Source of the DNA: Gammaproteobacteria bacterium
GTDB lineage: Bacteria > Pseudomonadota > Gammaproteobacteria > Eutrophobiales > Eutrophobiaceae
Assembly (NCBI GenBank): GCA_965215365.1
Contig: CBDCDS010000003.1
Span: 1 to 64,000 of the forward strand
Reading direction: 5' to 3'
Length of the DNA: 64,000 bases
How positions within the stretch are numbered: position 1 is the first letter of the stretch; the number at the start of each line of letters is the position of its first letter. The translations under genes and the position numbers were made by a program. Positions 58,224-64,000 of this stretch are shown in pieces. The notes under the pieces are model-generated. The model had not been told where the DNA came from and made no database searches. It worked only from the letters and a program-made list of their open reading frames with translations.

Positions 58224-59162
58224 GTGAATAAGCCGGGCGGCAGGTTTTTATTCATTACCCTCAGCAACATCGGCGATGCCTTGCTGACTACGCCGGTATT
58301 GGAGTTTTTGCACGAATACGACGCCCGCGCAACCATCGACATTGTCGGTGATGAGCGCTCCTCCGTGCTGTTCCGGTACTGTCCCTACCGGGGCGAAATT
58401 TATCACAAACATAAAAAACGCCTGCTACGAGGCGTACCCGCCCTGCTGGCGGCGCTACGCGGGAACCACTATGACCTGGTGGTGGATTTGCGCACGACGT
58501 TCCTGGCCTACCTGATCAAGGCTGAGCAACGGTTTGCCCGCAGCAACCGGGACACACGCCTGCATGCGGTTGAAAGGCACTTTTCCACCATTGCCGGCAT
58601 CGCCGGGGCCCAGGAAATACCGCCCACTGTCTTGTGGCTCAGCCGGACTGAGCGGGATTATGCGGAGGGGATATGCCGGCAGTTACCCGGACAGAAGTGG
58701 TTGTGCATCGGCCCCGGCGCCAACTGGGAACGCAAGATCTGGCCGGCGGAAAACTATGCGCAAACCGCGAATGCGCTGGGTGCCGAGTTCGAGGCACTGG
58801 TACTGCTGGGCAGCGCCGCCGACACCCATCACGCGCAGCGGCTCGCCCAGTCTGTGCGGCTACCCTGCGTCAACCTGTGCGGACAAACCACGCTGTTGCA
58901 AGCCGCCGCAGTGCTGGAACGGATGACCCTGTTGCTCGGCAACGACTCCGGCCTCGGCCATATCGCCGCCGCGCTCAGCACACCCTCCTTCACCCTGTTC
59001 GGCCCCGGCCACCCGGCACGCTACCACCCCTGGGGACCGCACGCAGCCTGGCACGCGGCGCCGGCTCGGGTTATCGAGACCATCCCGGTCAGTACCGTAC
59101 TGGCTGCAGTGCGCCTGCACCTGGCTCGTATTTCTCAGCCTGGGGCCAGTAGTATCCTATAG
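58224..59162 (+). CDS. Glycosyltransferase family 9 (heptosyltransferase-like)
   Basis: NIGDALLTTP, PGANW..K.WP, GNDSGLGHIAAA, LFGP. Confidence 0.9.
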   Translation: MNKPGGRFLFITLSNIGDALLTTPVLEFLHEYDARATIDIVGDERSSVLFRYCPYRGEIYHKHKKRLLRGVPALLAALRGNHYDLVVDLRTTFLAYLIKAEQRFARSNRDTRLHAVERHFSTIAGIAGAQEIPPTVLWLSRTERDYAEGICRQLPGQKWLCIGPGANWERKIWPAENYAQTANALGAEFEALVLLGSAADTHHAQRLAQSVRLPCVNLCGQTTLLQAAAVLERMTLLLGNDSGLGHIAAALSTPSFTLFGPGHPARYHPWGPHAAWHAAPARVIETIPVSTVLAAVRLHLARISQPGASSIL

Positions 59163-59363: not shown

Positions 59364-60743
59364 ATGAGTCGTCTCCTAAACGTACCGGAAGCTGGGGCGG
59401 TAAAAAACGTGCCGAAGATGGTTCTCGCTGCCGATGTGAAGGTTCCTGAAACCTTCGATTCAAAGGCGACTTATCCCTTTCACTACGAGGTCATGGGACA
59501 TGACCAACTGCCTCATGTAGTTAAATTTTCTGGCGGACGTTCCAGTGGAATGATGTTGTTCATGCTCTTGGAAAACAACTTCCTTAAGCCAAAACGGGGC
59601 GATGTCATCATATTTAACGACACTTCAGCTGAACATCCGGAGACTTATAATTTTACGGCAAAGTGCAAACGTATTGCTGAAGAGCGATACGGGATCCCAT
59701 TTTTTTGGATCCAGTTCCAGACATACGAAGATGCCAGGGGAGGAAAATGGGTGCGCTTGCCCGCGTATCGCCTGGTGAAACCCGTGCCCTGGTCGGCAGA
59801 CGAACCAGACGGATACCACTGGAAAGGCGAAGCCTTTGAGGAGCTACTTTCCTGGTCAGGGTACGTGCCGAATCAATTTCAGAGAACCTGCACTCAAAAT
59901 CTGAAGCTGGAAGTCACCAGGCAGTTTTTACGAGACTGGTTCGCCTGCAAAGACAGAACCAACCGGTTGGGGCATTATGGGGGCGGTAGCCGAATGGACG
60001 ATGACACGATGTATGCTTATCATCAAAAACACAGGGGAAAAGTTCCTAAAGAAATATTCCTTGCGAAAAAATCCTATGTCCGTTCCCGTCCCGTGTTTCG
60101 CAATGAACAATTTTTTTCAGATTTTTCCCGCATAACACAATCAATAGATAATCCGTATCTCACCGGCAAGCAATTCGGAGGCAACGCCACTTTTGGCGAT
60201 GGTGGCATTGAGTATATTACTTTTGTCGGACTGCGCCACGATGAAATGCGCCGGGTTATCAAAGTCCAAAGACGTAACTCCGGGGGACCCGAAGCGAATG
60301 GTTATGAGGGGGAACATGTTTATATGCCGCTGGCAAAGATCGGAGTAACAAAAGAAGATGTGGATGAGTTTTGGAACAACCAGAACTGGGGATTGAACCT
60401 GCCGAGTGAGGCTGGTTTGTCTAATTGTGTCTATTGCTTCCTCAAGGGTGCCGGGGCTTTGCGTAAGGTGCATAAGCAAATGGAAGCCGCCAAGGGGAAA
60501 ACAACATCGGCCATTGATTCGCCATGTGATATTAACTGGTGGAAACGGATGGAGCTTCGCTATGGCAGAGATCTGAAAGCGGAAAAACGAGTACTGCAAA
60601 AGAAAGAAAGAGCAGGAGCGGTGATTGGATTCTTCGGTATTGAGAGCGGATTTTCGTATGATCTGCTGGGAAAGAGCGATAATGGAAAAACAGATCTTTC
60701 CAAATTCACCAAAACCGTTTTGCCCTGCGATTGTACAGATTAA
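59364..60743 (+). CDS. PAPS-reductase/PP-loop family protein (distantly DndC/SspD-like)
   Basis: PP-loop FSGGRSSG, NDTSAEHPET, RTCTQNLK, VGLRHDE..R, SNCVYCF, C-terminal PCDC. Confidence 0.78.
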   Translation: MSRLLNVPEAGAVKNVPKMVLAADVKVPETFDSKATYPFHYEVMGHDQLPHVVKFSGGRSSGMMLFMLLENNFLKPKRGDVIIFNDTSAEHPETYNFTAKCKRIAEERYGIPFFWIQFQTYEDARGGKWVRLPAYRLVKPVPWSADEPDGYHWKGEAFEELLSWSGYVPNQFQRTCTQNLKLEVTRQFLRDWFACKDRTNRLGHYGGGSRMDDDTMYAYHQKHRGKVPKEIFLAKKSYVRSRPVFRNEQFFSDFSRITQSIDNPYLTGKQFGGNATFGDGGIEYITFVGLRHDEMRRVIKVQRRNSGGPEANGYEGEHVYMPLAKIGVTKEDVDEFWNNQNWGLNLPSEAGLSNCVYCFLKGAGALRKVHKQMEAAKGKTTSAIDSPCDINWWKRMELRYGRDLKAEKRVLQKKERAGAVIGFFGIESGFSYDLLGKSDNGKTDLSKFTKTVLPCDCTD

Positions 60744-60750
60744 AAACAGC

Positions 60751-61908
60751 GTGAGGAATAAGGTAGTTTACTTGGATAATCAGGCAACCACGCCAGTTGA
60801 CCCTCTGGTGTTGGATGCGATGCAACCCTATTTTTCAAGGGAATATGGCAATCCCCATTCAACGGGGCACGCTTATGGATGGAATGCTGAAGCCGCCGTA
60901 AATACCTCCCGACAAAGTGTAGCGACAATGATAGGGGCTGACGCCAGAGAAATTATATTCACGTCCGGCGCAACTGAATCCTGTAATCTGGCACTACGAG
61001 GGGTGGTAGGCGCCCAAGAAAAAAATAGTGCTAACTCACGTCGCAAAATAATAACAACTGCTATTGAGCATCCTTGTGTCTTAGAAACCTGCGAAGACCT
61101 GAAAAAGAACGGCTGGGAGGTTATAGTCGCCGCTGTAGATTCTGACGGGCTGATCGATATCGACGAGTTGTACAAGACAGTAGATGAACAGACGCTGGTT
61201 GTTTCAGTTATGGCGGCAAACAATGAAATCGGCGTTATACAACCCATTGAAGAAATCGGAGAAATTTGCCGGTCAAGGGGGGCGTACTTACACACCGATG
61301 CCACTCAAGCTGCAGGAAAAATACCGATTGACGTTAGAAAATGGAATGTTGACCTGATGAGTCTATCCGGACACAAAATGTATGCCCCCAAAGGCATAGG
61401 TGTCTTGTTTGTAAGATGGCAGCCACCCGTGAAGATAAAGCCGTTGGTAACAGGCGGCGGACAAGAGGCTGGACTTCGTCCGGGCACGATACCTGTCGCC
61501 CAAGTCGTCGGCATGGGCGAGGCATGTCGTATAGCGATAGATTCCATAGACAGGGAGTCTGTTGCACTTCGGAAATTAACTGAAAAGCTACGGCTGAAGT
61601 TGTTTGAAATACGCCCCGATGCAGTTTTATTCGGCCATTGGAAAAAACGTGTGCCAGGCAATATCAATATCGGCTTTCCAGGGTTTTCAGGGGAGGATAT
61701 AGTTTCCTCGGTTGGTGATGAAATAGCAATTTCCGCCGGTTCTGCCTGCTCTTCAGTTAAAGTTGAGCCTTCTCATGTTTTACTGGCCCTAGGTGTTGGT
61801 GCAGAAGCGGCGCAATCAGCTTTGCGCATCAGCCTAGGACGATTTAATACAGAAAGTGATGTTGACAAGGCGCTTCACGTCTTGTCGGAAATTATAACAA
61901 ACCCTTAA
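60751..61908 (+). CDS. Cysteine desulfurase (IscS/DndA/SspA-like)
   Basis: YLDNQATTP, YGNPHS, FTSGATE, HTDATQ, SGHKMY, SAGSACSS; GTG start at 60751. Confidence 0.93.
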   Translation: MRNKVVYLDNQATTPVDPLVLDAMQPYFSREYGNPHSTGHAYGWNAEAAVNTSRQSVATMIGADAREIIFTSGATESCNLALRGVVGAQEKNSANSRRKIITTAIEHPCVLETCEDLKKNGWEVIVAAVDSDGLIDIDELYKTVDEQTLVVSVMAANNEIGVIQPIEEIGEICRSRGAYLHTDATQAAGKIPIDVRKWNVDLMSLSGHKMYAPKGIGVLFVRWQPPVKIKPLVTGGGQEAGLRPGTIPVAQVVGMGEACRIAIDSIDRESVALRKLTEKLRLKLFEIRPDAVLFGHWKKRVPGNINIGFPGFSGEDIVSSVGDEIAISAGSACSSVKVEPSHVLLALGVGAEAAQSALRISLGRFNTESDVDKALHVLSEIITNP

Positions 61909-61927
61909 ATCAGGGAGGAGACTGTTG

Positions 61928-63616
61928 ATGCAAACAGAAAATAAGCCCATAGAAAGCTGGTTGGAAGATATAAGAAGAGGCGTGGTCAGGTTACCGCGCT
62001 TTCAGAGAAGAGAAGCGTGGACTTTCAAACACGTTGAAAATTTTCTGGCTACTGTAATTCTTCATGACCGGCCCATAGGTGTTTTATTGACGCTGGAGGT
62101 GGATTCAGCCAATCAGCCCTTTGAAACAAGATCGTTGGAAGGCACTGTTAATAATGGTGAGAAATGCAGATACCACTTGCTTGATGGTCAGCAGAGACTC
62201 ACCGCTCTCTGGAAAGCGTTAAATGACAAATATGAGGATCGTGCCTACTTTGTCGTTTTTGAGGAGGAAAATGAAGGCTTTATTTGTAACTCCGTCAAGG
62301 GAGTGCCCAGAAAAACGAATCCATGGGTGAAAAATTTGTCGGAGGCTTTCAACAAGAATTTGATTCCAGTCAGCCTGTTAAATCCCAAGGTGTCTCACAG
62401 CGAAATAGAAGTCTGGCTGAAAAATGTAGCGGATGAGGGCCAAAAAACTGTTTTACGAGAGTTGGTAATGAACTTATGGAAACGGGTCAGCAGCAAACCG
62501 TTTCCCTCGTTACCTCTGCCTCAATCTACCCGGCCGGATGAGGCAATTGACATTTTCATAAATACAAATACGTCATTCGTACGGTTGACCCCCTACAATA
62601 TTGCAGTCGCAATGTTCGAGGCTGACACTCAAGAATCTTTACAGGGCGTAGTGGATGAAGTCGGTCAGGAAGTTTCCGGCATCATCGATCTTGAGGGGGA
62701 AGATGGCTTGGGCGACCTTGTTCTCAAGGTGGCGTGTCTATTTCAAAACATGGTGCCAACCTACGGAAATTACAGAAAACTCGATATGCCTGAGCTTAGG
62801 GGACAGCAAAGTCAAATTCTGGAGGGAATCAGGTGGGCTACCGACACCTTAAACAAGGAGAAAATATGGACTGAGAGACAGCTCCCGAGTTCGGTTCCAC
62901 TGCGAGTTTTGCCAGCATTATTTCGATTTCTTCCGAAGCACGGTGATGATCGCGCCAAAGCAGACAGGCTTGTGCGGCAGTATATCTGGCGTTCTTTTGT
63001 CACTGACCGATATGACCGGCAGGCCAACGACAGGTTGAAGAAAGACTACGATGCAATTCAAAAGGCGCTGCAAAATAAACGCTTTCAGTGCTCGGACAAA
63101 AACACAGTATTTGCCGAACAACTCCCAAATAAAGAGGAGTTGCTTGCGGAGGGTTGGCCCCGAAGCAAAGGCATAAGAAAGCGGGCTGCCTTGGCAATTT
63201 GCACCAGAGAAGGGTCAAGAGATATCGCAAGCAATGTCGAAATTTCTCTCGATGAGATACGTAAACGACAATATCATCATATTTTTCCGAAGGGACTTTT
63301 GAGAAAAGTGGACTCTAATCCTGATCTCGTATTGAATTGCATGCTCATAGACGAACCGACCAATCAGGATTGGAGCGATCGGTGGCCGGGGGATTACATC
63401 CTGGAGAGAATAGAGCAATCAGGGCTTCATGGTGAGGAGGCAAAACAAGAGTTGCGGCAACGACTGGAGTCCCACCTGGTTCCACCTGATGCCATATTAA
63501 ACGCAACAGATGATGGCGGCGCTTCACTGCAGCAAAAGTATGAAGATTTTCTCAAGCAACGGGCTGAGTTGATTATTGCAAAGATGATAATACTCTGCAG
63601 AGGAAAAACTGATTGA
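61928..63616 (+). CDS. DUF262 (ParB-like NTPase) plus C-terminal HNH-like domain (GmrSD/SspE-like)
   Basis: LPRFQR..AW, LLDGQQRLT, IFINTN; C-terminal YHHIFPK...LNCMLI...TN; RBS GGAGGAG. Confidence 0.85.
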   Translation: MQTENKPIESWLEDIRRGVVRLPRFQRREAWTFKHVENFLATVILHDRPIGVLLTLEVDSANQPFETRSLEGTVNNGEKCRYHLLDGQQRLTALWKALNDKYEDRAYFVVFEEENEGFICNSVKGVPRKTNPWVKNLSEAFNKNLIPVSLLNPKVSHSEIEVWLKNVADEGQKTVLRELVMNLWKRVSSKPFPSLPLPQSTRPDEAIDIFINTNTSFVRLTPYNIAVAMFEADTQESLQGVVDEVGQEVSGIIDLEGEDGLGDLVLKVACLFQNMVPTYGNYRKLDMPELRGQQSQILEGIRWATDTLNKEKIWTERQLPSSVPLRVLPALFRFLPKHGDDRAKADRLVRQYIWRSFVTDRYDRQANDRLKKDYDAIQKALQNKRFQCSDKNTVFAEQLPNKEELLAEGWPRSKGIRKRAALAICTREGSRDIASNVEISLDEIRKRQYHHIFPKGLLRKVDSNPDLVLNCMLIDEPTNQDWSDRWPGDYILERIEQSGLHGEEAKQELRQRLESHLVPPDAILNATDDGGASLQQKYEDFLKQRAELIIAKMIILCRGKTD

Positions 63617-63626
63617 AAGTTCAGCT

Positions 63627-64000
63627 ATGACAAATAAGAAAAAACAAAAAAAACCTTCCTTACACTTTGGCCCGGGTGACATGGCCGGCTGGACGCCGGT
63701 TGGTTTGAGTGGCTACCGGGCATTGAAACCAACCGCCGCCATACGTGAATTGATACAAAATGGACTCGATGCCGCTGATGCAAGGGAAACCCCGGCCCGT
63801 ATGCGCTTCCGAGTGGAAACATGTCAGATCAATGATGTGCCGGGCATAGCTACGTATCGAGAAGCTTTTCAGGAAGCGCAAGAGACCCAACTTAGTCTCT
63901 CTGGAGGTAAAATGCCTGATAATGCTGAAGCCGTCATCAAGGATATAAATTCGTGCTTGGGAGAACAAACATGCCATATTCTGCATGTTCTGGATAATGG
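63627..64000 (+). CDS. GHKL/HATPase-domain protein, N-terminal part (runs off the edge; not in the ORF track)
   Basis: Open from ATG 63627 to the end of the window: MTNKKKQ...AAIRELIQNGLDAA...ILHVLDNG (GHKL N-box and G1-box). Confidence 0.8.
   Translation, partial: MTNKKKQKKPSLHFGPGDMAGWTPVGLSGYRALKPTAAIRELIQNGLDAADARETPARMRFRVETCQINDVPGIATYREAFQEAQETQLSLSGGKMPDNAEAVIKDINSCLGEQTCHILHVLDN

Follow-up and report, generated by a model that had tools for sequence, protein, structure and literature searches.

The opening 64 kb of a contig 2.63 Mb long from a gammaproteobacterium of the family Eutrophobiaceae (GCA_965215365.1, CBDCDS010000003.1, positions 1 to 64,000; referred to here as the window, with which the contig shares its numbering) ends inside an island of six co-directional genes. 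This island quite probably encodes a DNA modification–restriction system of the phosphorothioation type, that is, a sulfur-based self-marking system directed against phage, in which familiar sulfur enzymes are joined to new partners. The first two genes encode an SspD-like PP-loop enzyme and a cysteine desulfurase, the third a DUF262 protein, and the last three a trio consisting of a GHKL ATPase and two proteins termed B and C (Table 1). The trio is already listed in PADLOC as PDC-M33; what appears new, judged from sequence, is its union with an SspD-like enzyme and a desulfurase.

The original prediction, made from the window alone, had proposed a four-gene operon at 59364-64000 encoding a non-canonical sulfur-transfer system. 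The four genes are present in one direction with low GC content and the close spacing given in Table 1, as are all the motifs that were named (SGGRSS, RTC, CxxC, CxC, DGQQR and an HNH-like tail). As the window is the start of the contig the operon can be read beyond its end, and the proposed unit then proves to be the front two-thirds of the island, which runs from 59364 for ~8.1 kb on the + strand, its last gene lying before ilvE. The claim that no dndD/E or sspB/C accompanies these genes holds for the extension, which contains the rest of the GHKL gene, B, C and then ilvE. The idea of a sulfur-transfer system is supported by the results below, with two amendments: the DUF262 protein is an accessory, and the ATPase belongs to a trio that had already been catalogued.

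Components of the island

The PP-loop protein contains SGGRSS (56-61), R174-T-C176-T177, C355-x-x-C358 and a terminal C455-D-C457. The SGG(R/K)(S/T)S signature and the five cysteines (C176, C355, C358, C455 and C457) are kept in 26/26 aligned homologues. Against the PADLOC SspD model the protein gives E 3.1e-10 and 38.2 bits with no single stretch passing, compared with 451 bits for the canonical SspD of the same genome. The scores for DndC (E 0.0081, 13 bits) and BrxP (E 1.2e-4, 18.5 bits) are lower still, and that for Pfam PAPS_reduct, the phosphoadenosine phosphosulfate (PAPS) reductase family, is 20.8 bits, under the cut-off of 22.5. Aligning the PP-loop family by hhalign with 10 canonical SspD references, drawn from whole genomes with this one included, gives a probability of 98.2% (E 5.6e-14). 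The alignment covers the PP-loop, a T-x-E-x-P-x-Y stretch, RxCT..LK, an R-x-DE motif and CxxC, all in the same order. On these profile comparisons the protein is a true but divergent homologue of SspD and not a member of that family, in line with the divergence from DndC and SspD that had been predicted, and SspD is its sole significant family relation.

The nearest PDB folds to an AlphaFold2 model of the protein (mean predicted local distance difference test, pLDDT, 77.6) are all PP-loop enzymes, matched weakly (best E 2.5e-3), and a PDB sequence-profile search with the family returns nothing meaningful. A PDB chain named 'PptA' (21fy_C, 270 residues) gives E 9.6e-11 against the SspD profile and is unlisted at E<=1 for the window's PP-loop family. 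The family comprises 1,151 proteins at E<=1e-3 among 4,254 candidates. Its best 120 members are 363-561 residues long, all but one being of at least 430, with identities of at least 53%, and the four with source-given names are each called 'hypothetical protein'.

The desulfurase contains the motifs SGHKMY, which we take to carry the pyridoxal phosphate lysine, and SAGSACSS, presumably the catalytic cysteine loop. It matches PADLOC SspA at 5e-150 (498 bits), DndA at 5.7e-150 and Pfam Aminotran_5 at 3.2e-88; the NCBIfam models for IscS, NifS and DndA score 420-449 bits, all under their equivalog cut-offs. Three IscS-like genes are found in the genome (C3:60763-61896, C1:62668-63816 and C3:86812-87507), none of which reaches the IscS equivalog cut-off. 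The top two both lie in DNA-sulfur loci, that of the island being best and that of a canonical ssp locus second, and the third scores 118 bits. As listed, the desulfurase reading frame opens at TTG 60625, within the PP-loop gene, and the start compatible with homologues is GTG 60751. Similarly, the DUF262 reading frame is listed from TTG 61925 and its homologue-compatible start is ATG 61928.

The DUF262 protein consists of an N-terminal GmrSD_N domain (Pfam E 1.8e-19, 71 bits) with DGQQR at 87-91, and a C-terminal domain undetected by Pfam with the tail motif H451-H452 ... N471 ... N480; both motifs are conserved in 26 sequences. Its top PADLOC match is HEC-05 (1e-15), and neither the SspE nor the SspB model of PADLOC matches it at E<=0.01. 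In PDB profile searches the N-terminal 320 positions match 7p9k, a 'DUF262 domain-containing protein' (E 1.9e-13) that we take to be BrxU, and positions 423-508 weakly match the HNH domain of Cas9 (E 0.054). The C-terminal HNH-like nuclease domain is putative and rests on the tail motif.

The GHKL ATPase contains the Bergerat motifs E41/N45/D48, D123-x-G125-x-G127 and G150/G153/G155, which are invariant in 28 sequences. The full-length protein matches PADLOC PDC-M33A at 1.2e-32 and 111 bits, compared with 250-340 bits for canonical A proteins. Protein B matches PDC-M33B at 2.2e-8 and protein C matches PDC-M33C weakly at 1.7e-3; the A-B-C order, the adjacency and the sizes are as in PDC-M33. 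PDC-M33 is a PADLOC candidate defence system defined without sulfur genes, and no paper naming it or DUF6339 was found in the searchable literature, outside which lie subscription journals and supplementary files. The GHKL protein has no match in Pfam, HATPase included, and PDB profile searches give Hsp90 (E 0.013) and MORC3 (E 0.25), both weak. An acidic D-E-N-x-D-x-T-C-D stretch is conserved in its C-terminal third (residues ~562-570, contig ~65310-65340). Within it D562, E563 and D566 show little or no variation among the 28 sequences, the C-terminal third being otherwise variable, and the stretch could be a metal site.

For protein B neither Pfam nor the PDB offers a relative, and 35 of its homologues gave no more than scattered single matches when scanned against Pfam. 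The model of protein C is all-alpha and confident (pLDDT 91, predicted template modelling score 0.89), and Foldseek finds no PDB neighbour for it (best E 2.4). PDB sequence-profile searches with B and C return nothing meaningful, and an Atlas search gives nothing usable for C and, for B, look-alikes that are all unnamed clusters. A predicted complex of protein C with the PP-loop protein scored 0.61, against 0.59 for the control.

Linkage of the sulfur genes to the GHKL, B and C genes

Loci from species-representative genomes were scanned with the PP-loop alignment; of 184 confirmed relatives the best 80 loci were kept, and their neighbouring genes were counted by tblastn. Conserved linkage had been set beforehand as a test of the original prediction, and the GHKL gene lies next to the PP-loop gene in 78/80 loci. 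B does so in 76 and C in 73, and several of the missing B or C calls coincide with the edge of a contig or locus (L020, L039, L067, L079). The desulfurase is found at 64/80. The median gap from the PP-loop gene to the desulfurase gene is 5 nucleotides, and at most 100 nucleotides in 63/64; that from GHKL to B is -1 and from B to C -4. By this count the core is the PP-loop gene, usually a desulfurase, and the GHKL, B and C genes. The DUF262-HNH gene can be regarded as accessory because it is present in 28/80 loci, where it takes one of two alternative positions, preceding the GHKL gene or following C.

The loci span Gamma- and Alphaproteobacteria, Thermodesulfobacteriota, Binatia, Dehalococcoidia and several acidobacterial orders, and further lineages are Latescibacterota, Spirochaetia, Nitrospinota, Rhodothermales and Limisphaerales. 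Sponge-symbiont names recur among them (Poriferihabitaceae, Porifericomitales, Porisulfidus, Entotheonella). Searched against plasmids, the PP-loop protein has 3 matches, all weak and partial and in unrelated contexts.

Other reading frames within 4.5 kb of the cassette were clustered and one representative per cluster was scanned; the loci extend ~10 kb downstream, so that the resulting counts are lower bounds. PbeA lies beside the cassette in at least 14/80 loci (representative PADLOC E 4.8e-151), PbeC in at least 9/80 (1.1e-44) and DndB in at least 6/80 (representative Pfam E 2.4e-31). A protein of ~658 residues with a sigma-70 region-4 helix–turn–helix is encoded just downstream of C, usually before PbeA, in at least 12/80 loci (e.g. 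L059, L062, L070), and one of ~492 residues with no family match just downstream of C in at least 11/80. DUF262 and PbeA co-occur in 0/80 loci, a suggestive exclusion of the kind expected if the two were alternative restriction modules sharing one modification core. PbeABCD is described as a phosphorothioate-dependent antiviral module in the available text of PMC6459918.

The trio also occurs without the PP-loop gene. Searches with the PDC-M33A model covered three phylum samples, each of 401 genomes (1,203), and matched 5, 14 and 14 genomes in them. With the three centre genomes excluded, 31 loci were scanned with local hidden Markov models (HMMs), and 18 have A together with a detectable B or C; the 13 weaker loci with A only, one of them with a methylase 3.6 kb off, were left uncounted. 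A C5 cytosine methylase directly adjoins 10/18 of these cassettes (L088, L089, L091, L112, L120, L126, L127, L129, L134, L138), three of the methylases being confirmed by Pfam (E 1.7e-63 to 3.9e-36) and the others assigned by local HMM at 190-301 bits. This adjacency suggests that PDC-M33 is a methylation-linked, restriction-like system. A member of the present PP-loop family accompanies 3/18 cassettes (one, L128, being presumed, unconfirmed, to belong to the same genome as L056), and nothing was detected at a further 3/18.

In the remaining 2/18 cassettes protein C is fused to an SspD-like domain. The fusion in L113 is preceded by PDC-M33A (E 1.5e-75) and PDC-M33B (E 1.5e-38) and followed by a DUF262 gene (Orf5/HEC-06/SspE-like), with a desulfurase 3 kb away; L114 encodes a full-length homologue (Table 1). 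The PAPS-reductase-type enzyme therefore seems to have been recruited to the trio at least twice, once as a separate upstream gene and once by fusion to C. From the loci compared, the PP-loop enzyme requires the trio and the trio does not require the PP-loop enzyme. What the trio usually has beside it is an enzyme of DNA modification, be it a C5 methylase or a sulfurtransferase of the PAPS-reductase type.

Four cassettes lie on plasmids. In three of these dcm is 2-4 kb away, accompanied in two of the three by an endonuclease of its own; the fourth cassette lies within a type I system. One cassette is neighboured by Shedu and a type II system. All four plasmid cassettes have a reading frame of ~76-80 residues 5' of the GHKL gene on the same strand, placed by annotated coordinates between a few-base overlap with that gene and ~540 nucleotides from it; the window's operon has none.

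Table 1. Locations of the island genes and of the other features discussed (aa, amino acids; nt, nucleotides; ORF, open reading frame)
Feature	Location	Strand	Remarks
SspD-like PP-loop (PAPS-reductase-type) ATP pyrophosphatase	59364-60743	+	459 aa; 7 nt to desulfurase gene
IscS/NifS-class cysteine desulfurase, SspA/DndA type	60751-61908 (GTG)	+	385 aa; 19 nt to DUF262 gene
DUF262 (GmrSD_N) protein, HNH-like C-terminal motif	61928-63616 (ATG)	+	562 aa; 10 nt to GHKL gene
GHKL ATPase (PDC-M33A-like)	63627-65597	+	656 aa; 5 nt to B; N-terminus only (63627-64000) inside window
Protein B (PDC-M33B-like)	65603-66436	+	277 aa; 4-nt overlap with C (GTGA)
Protein C (PDC-M33C-like)	66433-67308 (GTG)	+	291 aa; last gene of island
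Family-9 glycosyltransferase	58224-59162		Pfam E 5.7e-35; between mnmE and island
Canonical ssp locus	C1:62000-76315 (L111)		contig C1 of the same genome, outside window; SspA (divergent), SspB, SspC, SspD (451 bits)
C-SspD fusion protein	L113 6390-8003	-	538 aa; PDC-M33C E 1.2e-15 (80-250); SspD-like E 1.4e-13 (270-489)
C-SspD fusion homologue	L114 6421-8112	-	full-length; 52% identical to that of L113
Short ORF upstream of GHKL	L092 5684-5914		plasmid cassette
Short ORF upstream of GHKL	L093 5668-5898		plasmid cassette
Short ORF upstream of GHKL	L094 5666-5893		plasmid cassette
Short ORF upstream of GHKL	L095 5512-5754		plasmid cassette

Proposed function and alternative interpretations

In the phosphorothioation-type system that we favour with moderate confidence, the dedicated desulfurase would draw sulfur from cysteine as a persulfide and pass it to the SspD-like PP-loop enzyme, whose five invariant cysteines (C176, C355-x-x-C358 and C455-x-C457) are the likely sulfur relay and the likely ligands of a metal or iron–sulfur cluster. 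This enzyme would use ATP to activate a backbone phosphate of DNA, the presumed substrate, and insert the sulfur, with a phosphorothioate as the expected product. The GHKL ATPase, B and C may fill the place of SspB/SspC or DndD/DndE as the DNA-handling engine, to which the sulfurtransferase would dock, probably through C. The pairing of the trio with a C5 methylase elsewhere suggests a second role, probably that of recognizing the mark and attacking DNA that lacks it. The DUF262-HNH protein would be a swappable extra nuclease, and the whole is presumed to act against phage.

The evidence bearing on the role of the trio is divided. The recurrent extra restriction-type modules (DUF262, Pbe) favour a role in writing the mark, such as SspB/C and DndD/E have, whereas the methylase-linked cassettes favour one in reading and restriction; both roles together, as in BREX (bacteriophage exclusion), are conceivable. 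In BREX type 4 the PAPS-reductase protein BrxP stands in place of the PglX methylase, and experiments show that phosphorothioate is made, according to the accessible part of PMC12914056. By analogy, the alternation of methylase and sulfurtransferase beside the trio would be the same pattern, a PAPS-reductase-type enzyme swapping for a DNA methylase on a conserved defence chassis. The chassis itself differs, that of the island being the GHKL trio, with no BrxC, PglZ or BrxL among the island proteins and a BrxP score as low as that given above.

The island resembles Ssp in its desulfurase, which is of SspA type, and in its PP-loop enzyme, a homologue of SspD that keeps the order of the motifs. 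Its accessory DUF262 protein, a putative nuclease with an HNH-like tail, recalls SspE (DUF262 + DUF1524) in outline, with no match to the SspE models. The island differs in having a GHKL ATPase and two proteins of no recognised family where Ssp has SspB and SspC, neither of which is matched at E<=0.01 among the six island proteins (both are present at the separate C1 locus), and in the length of its PP-loop enzyme, SspD having ~280 residues. SspC is a Cdc6/Orc-type AAA+ protein, and neither it nor DndD is a GHKL enzyme in what could be consulted of PMC10853773, in agreement with the original prediction. Similarly, the island resembles Dnd in its desulfurase and PAPS-reductase-type enzyme, and DndB, PbeA and PbeC recur beside related cassettes, but there is no DndD or DndE among its proteins and the DndC model gives 13 bits. 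A canonical Dnd, Ssp or BREX type 4 identity is rejected on the defining components.

Four DNA phosphorothioate writers are established in the accessible part of PMC12914056 (Dnd, Ssp, Tdp and BREX type 4), and for Tdp tdpC alone is said there to make the mark. By its components the island appears to lie outside Dnd, Ssp and BREX type 4, and Tdp (An et al. 2025) is available for comparison by description only; PDB profile searches with the PP-loop, GHKL, B and C families give no chain named Tdp. Within PDC-M33, the island differs from the sampled canonical cassettes, which carry a C5 methylase and no PP-loop gene and from whose A proteins its own is distant by bits. Its DUF262 protein is linked to GmrSD and BrxU by the GmrSD_N domain, DGQQR and the 7p9k match, has a conserved H-H...N...N tail that may be a nuclease of their kind, and is set apart by a C-terminal domain that escapes Pfam and by the position of its gene inside a sulfur-modification operon. 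GHKL ATPases of the MORC and paraMORC type have been placed in predicted, laterally mobile modification–restriction operons, often beside cytosine methylases (Iyer, Abhiman and Aravind 2008; PMC2292703, as far as its text was available). The island, with a GHKL ATPase in a predicted operon of this kind, apparent lateral mobility and cytosine methylases beside related cassettes, fits that older prediction. The partners given in the same portion of PMC2292703 are helicase, nuclease and methylase; sulfur enzymes go unmentioned in it, with 0 occurrences of 'PAPS' or 'Dnd'. No paper joining a GHKL ATPase to a PAPS reductase and desulfurase, or phosphorothioate to MORC, was found in the literature searched, outside which lie subscription journals and supplements.

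A number of observations weigh against a phosphorothioation-type system. The PP-loop protein misses every curated family threshold, with no DndC or SspD match in the NCBIfam scan, and relative to SspD it has two large insertions (~112-155 and ~193-282) and a C-terminal CxC instead of CxxC, so that a different substrate or product is possible. Two loci lack the trio, one with the PP-loop gene alone (L069) and one with the PP-loop gene and desulfurase only (L006). In 30/80 loci none of the accessory genes listed, nor DUF262, is present in the DNA examined, and the PbeA, PbeC and DndB labels each derive from one scanned representative per BLAST cluster. Pbe-type modules also occur alone, without phosphorothioation genes, or with methylases (PMC10853773, in the part available); the Pbe association is therefore suggestive and no proof. 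The homology of protein C to PDC-M33C/DUF6339 is weak (E 1.7e-3; hhalign against canonical C 58%), and no nuclease fold is recognised in GHKL, B or C by family and profile searches or, for C, by a structure search. The methylase adjacency may in part reflect clustering in defence islands, as the plasmid cassettes suggest. Finally, the genome carries a canonical ssp locus besides the island.

This last point would make sense if the island wrote a second, different mark. The most interesting rival is that the module thiolates a DNA base, giving for instance a 2-thio- or 4-thio-pyrimidine or a thio-purine instead of a backbone phosphorothioate, with GHKL-B-C reading the base mark. In homologous cassettes the enzyme occupies the place of a C5 methylase, which modifies a base; its distance from SspD and DndC by score, its two insertions and its CxC terminus also count in favour, as do the weak structural neighbours of its model, among them two tRNA thiolases, NcsA and TtuA, and the sulfur transferase LarE (E 0.15-0.65). 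PP-loop tRNA thiolases make thio-bases on RNA, but we know of no DNA thio-base made by a PP-loop enzyme of this type. As the only significant family relation of the enzyme is SspD, and the accessory genes (DndB, Pbe, the DUF262 nuclease) are known from phosphorothioation loci, thiolation of a base is considered unlikely.

It is similarly improbable that the island merely brings together defence genes that work independently of one another, namely an orphan sulfur pair, a stand-alone type IV enzyme like GmrSD or BrxU and a stand-alone PDC-M33. Defence genes do cluster, as with the Shedu and type II systems beside one cassette; PDC-M33 cassettes exist without a PP-loop gene, and DUF262, present in just 28/80 loci, is similar to a stand-alone DUF262 protein of solved structure. 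Juxtaposition is quite possible where this one gene is concerned. For the core it is unlikely because the GHKL gene stands in the same order at 78/80 PP-loop loci, with gaps or overlaps of a few bases, and because two genomes encode C and an SspD-like domain as one fused protein. It is very improbable that the PP-loop protein and desulfurase act, beside unrelated neighbours, in RNA or small-molecule chemistry (thiolation of tRNA, a cofactor or a natural product): such pairs serve tRNA thiolation and cofactor synthesis, and the SspD profile matches MnmA weakly (E 2e-4), but no RNA-binding or biosynthetic neighbours are seen, the partners that are conserved comprise a trio known to occur next to DNA methylases, together with DndB, Pbe and DUF262 genes, and the patchy cross-phylum distribution and low GC content fit a mobile defence island.

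If a phosphorothioation-type system is the correct interpretation, the writer would depend on a GHKL ATPase in place of one of P-loop type. It would also offer a first way into the function of PDC-M33, of protein C, with no solved structural neighbour, and of protein B, with no recognisable relative. Earlier new writers each brought sequence specificities, restriction partners and tools. The alternation of methylase and sulfurtransferase on one chassis allows a clean test of what the chassis reads, and with a PP-loop family of more than 1,000 members, unnamed where named at all, surveys restricted to dnd and ssp would undercount sulfur-marked genomes. A bolder proposal, for which the case falls a little short of even, is that the PP-loop enzyme, desulfurase, GHKL, B and C constitute a further, undescribed class of DNA sulfur-writing systems, in which GHKL-B-C would be a general chassis for reading marks and restricting, open to a self mark of 5-methylcytosine or of sulfur alike; its product may be other than a phosphorothioate, and it may have spread laterally in symbiont-rich lineages.

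Genomic setting

The island has a GC content of 0.41-0.50, compared with 0.60-0.66 in both flanks; for its genes inside the window the range is 0.43-0.50, against 0.60-0.64 immediately upstream. Upstream, mnmE is found as had been predicted, but a glycosyltransferase gene lies between it and the island (Table 1). Downstream, ilvE starts at 67504, the GC content is back to ~0.62, and envelope glycosyltransferase genes follow. Scans for promoters and terminators do not rise above chance (11 with 11.4 expected, and 7 with 8.9), and no direct or inverted repeats resembling the ends of a mobile element flank the island. The sole same-family genome searched (G274) lacks the cassette; an empty insertion site is not demonstrable there, since ilvE and the genes downstream are syntenic and the upstream flank is absent. 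The identity between phyla (~51-59%), the same-family genome without the cassette and the low GC content together point to acquisition of the island by lateral transfer.

The canonical ssp locus of the same genome is apparently broken. No SspE is detected there up to the contig end, and SspC is split, L111 2974-3897 matching positions 1-213 of the model and L111 7046-9967 matching positions 211-1044. Between the two halves lie ~3.1 kb of reading frames on the opposite strand, one of which contains a type II methylase-like fragment.

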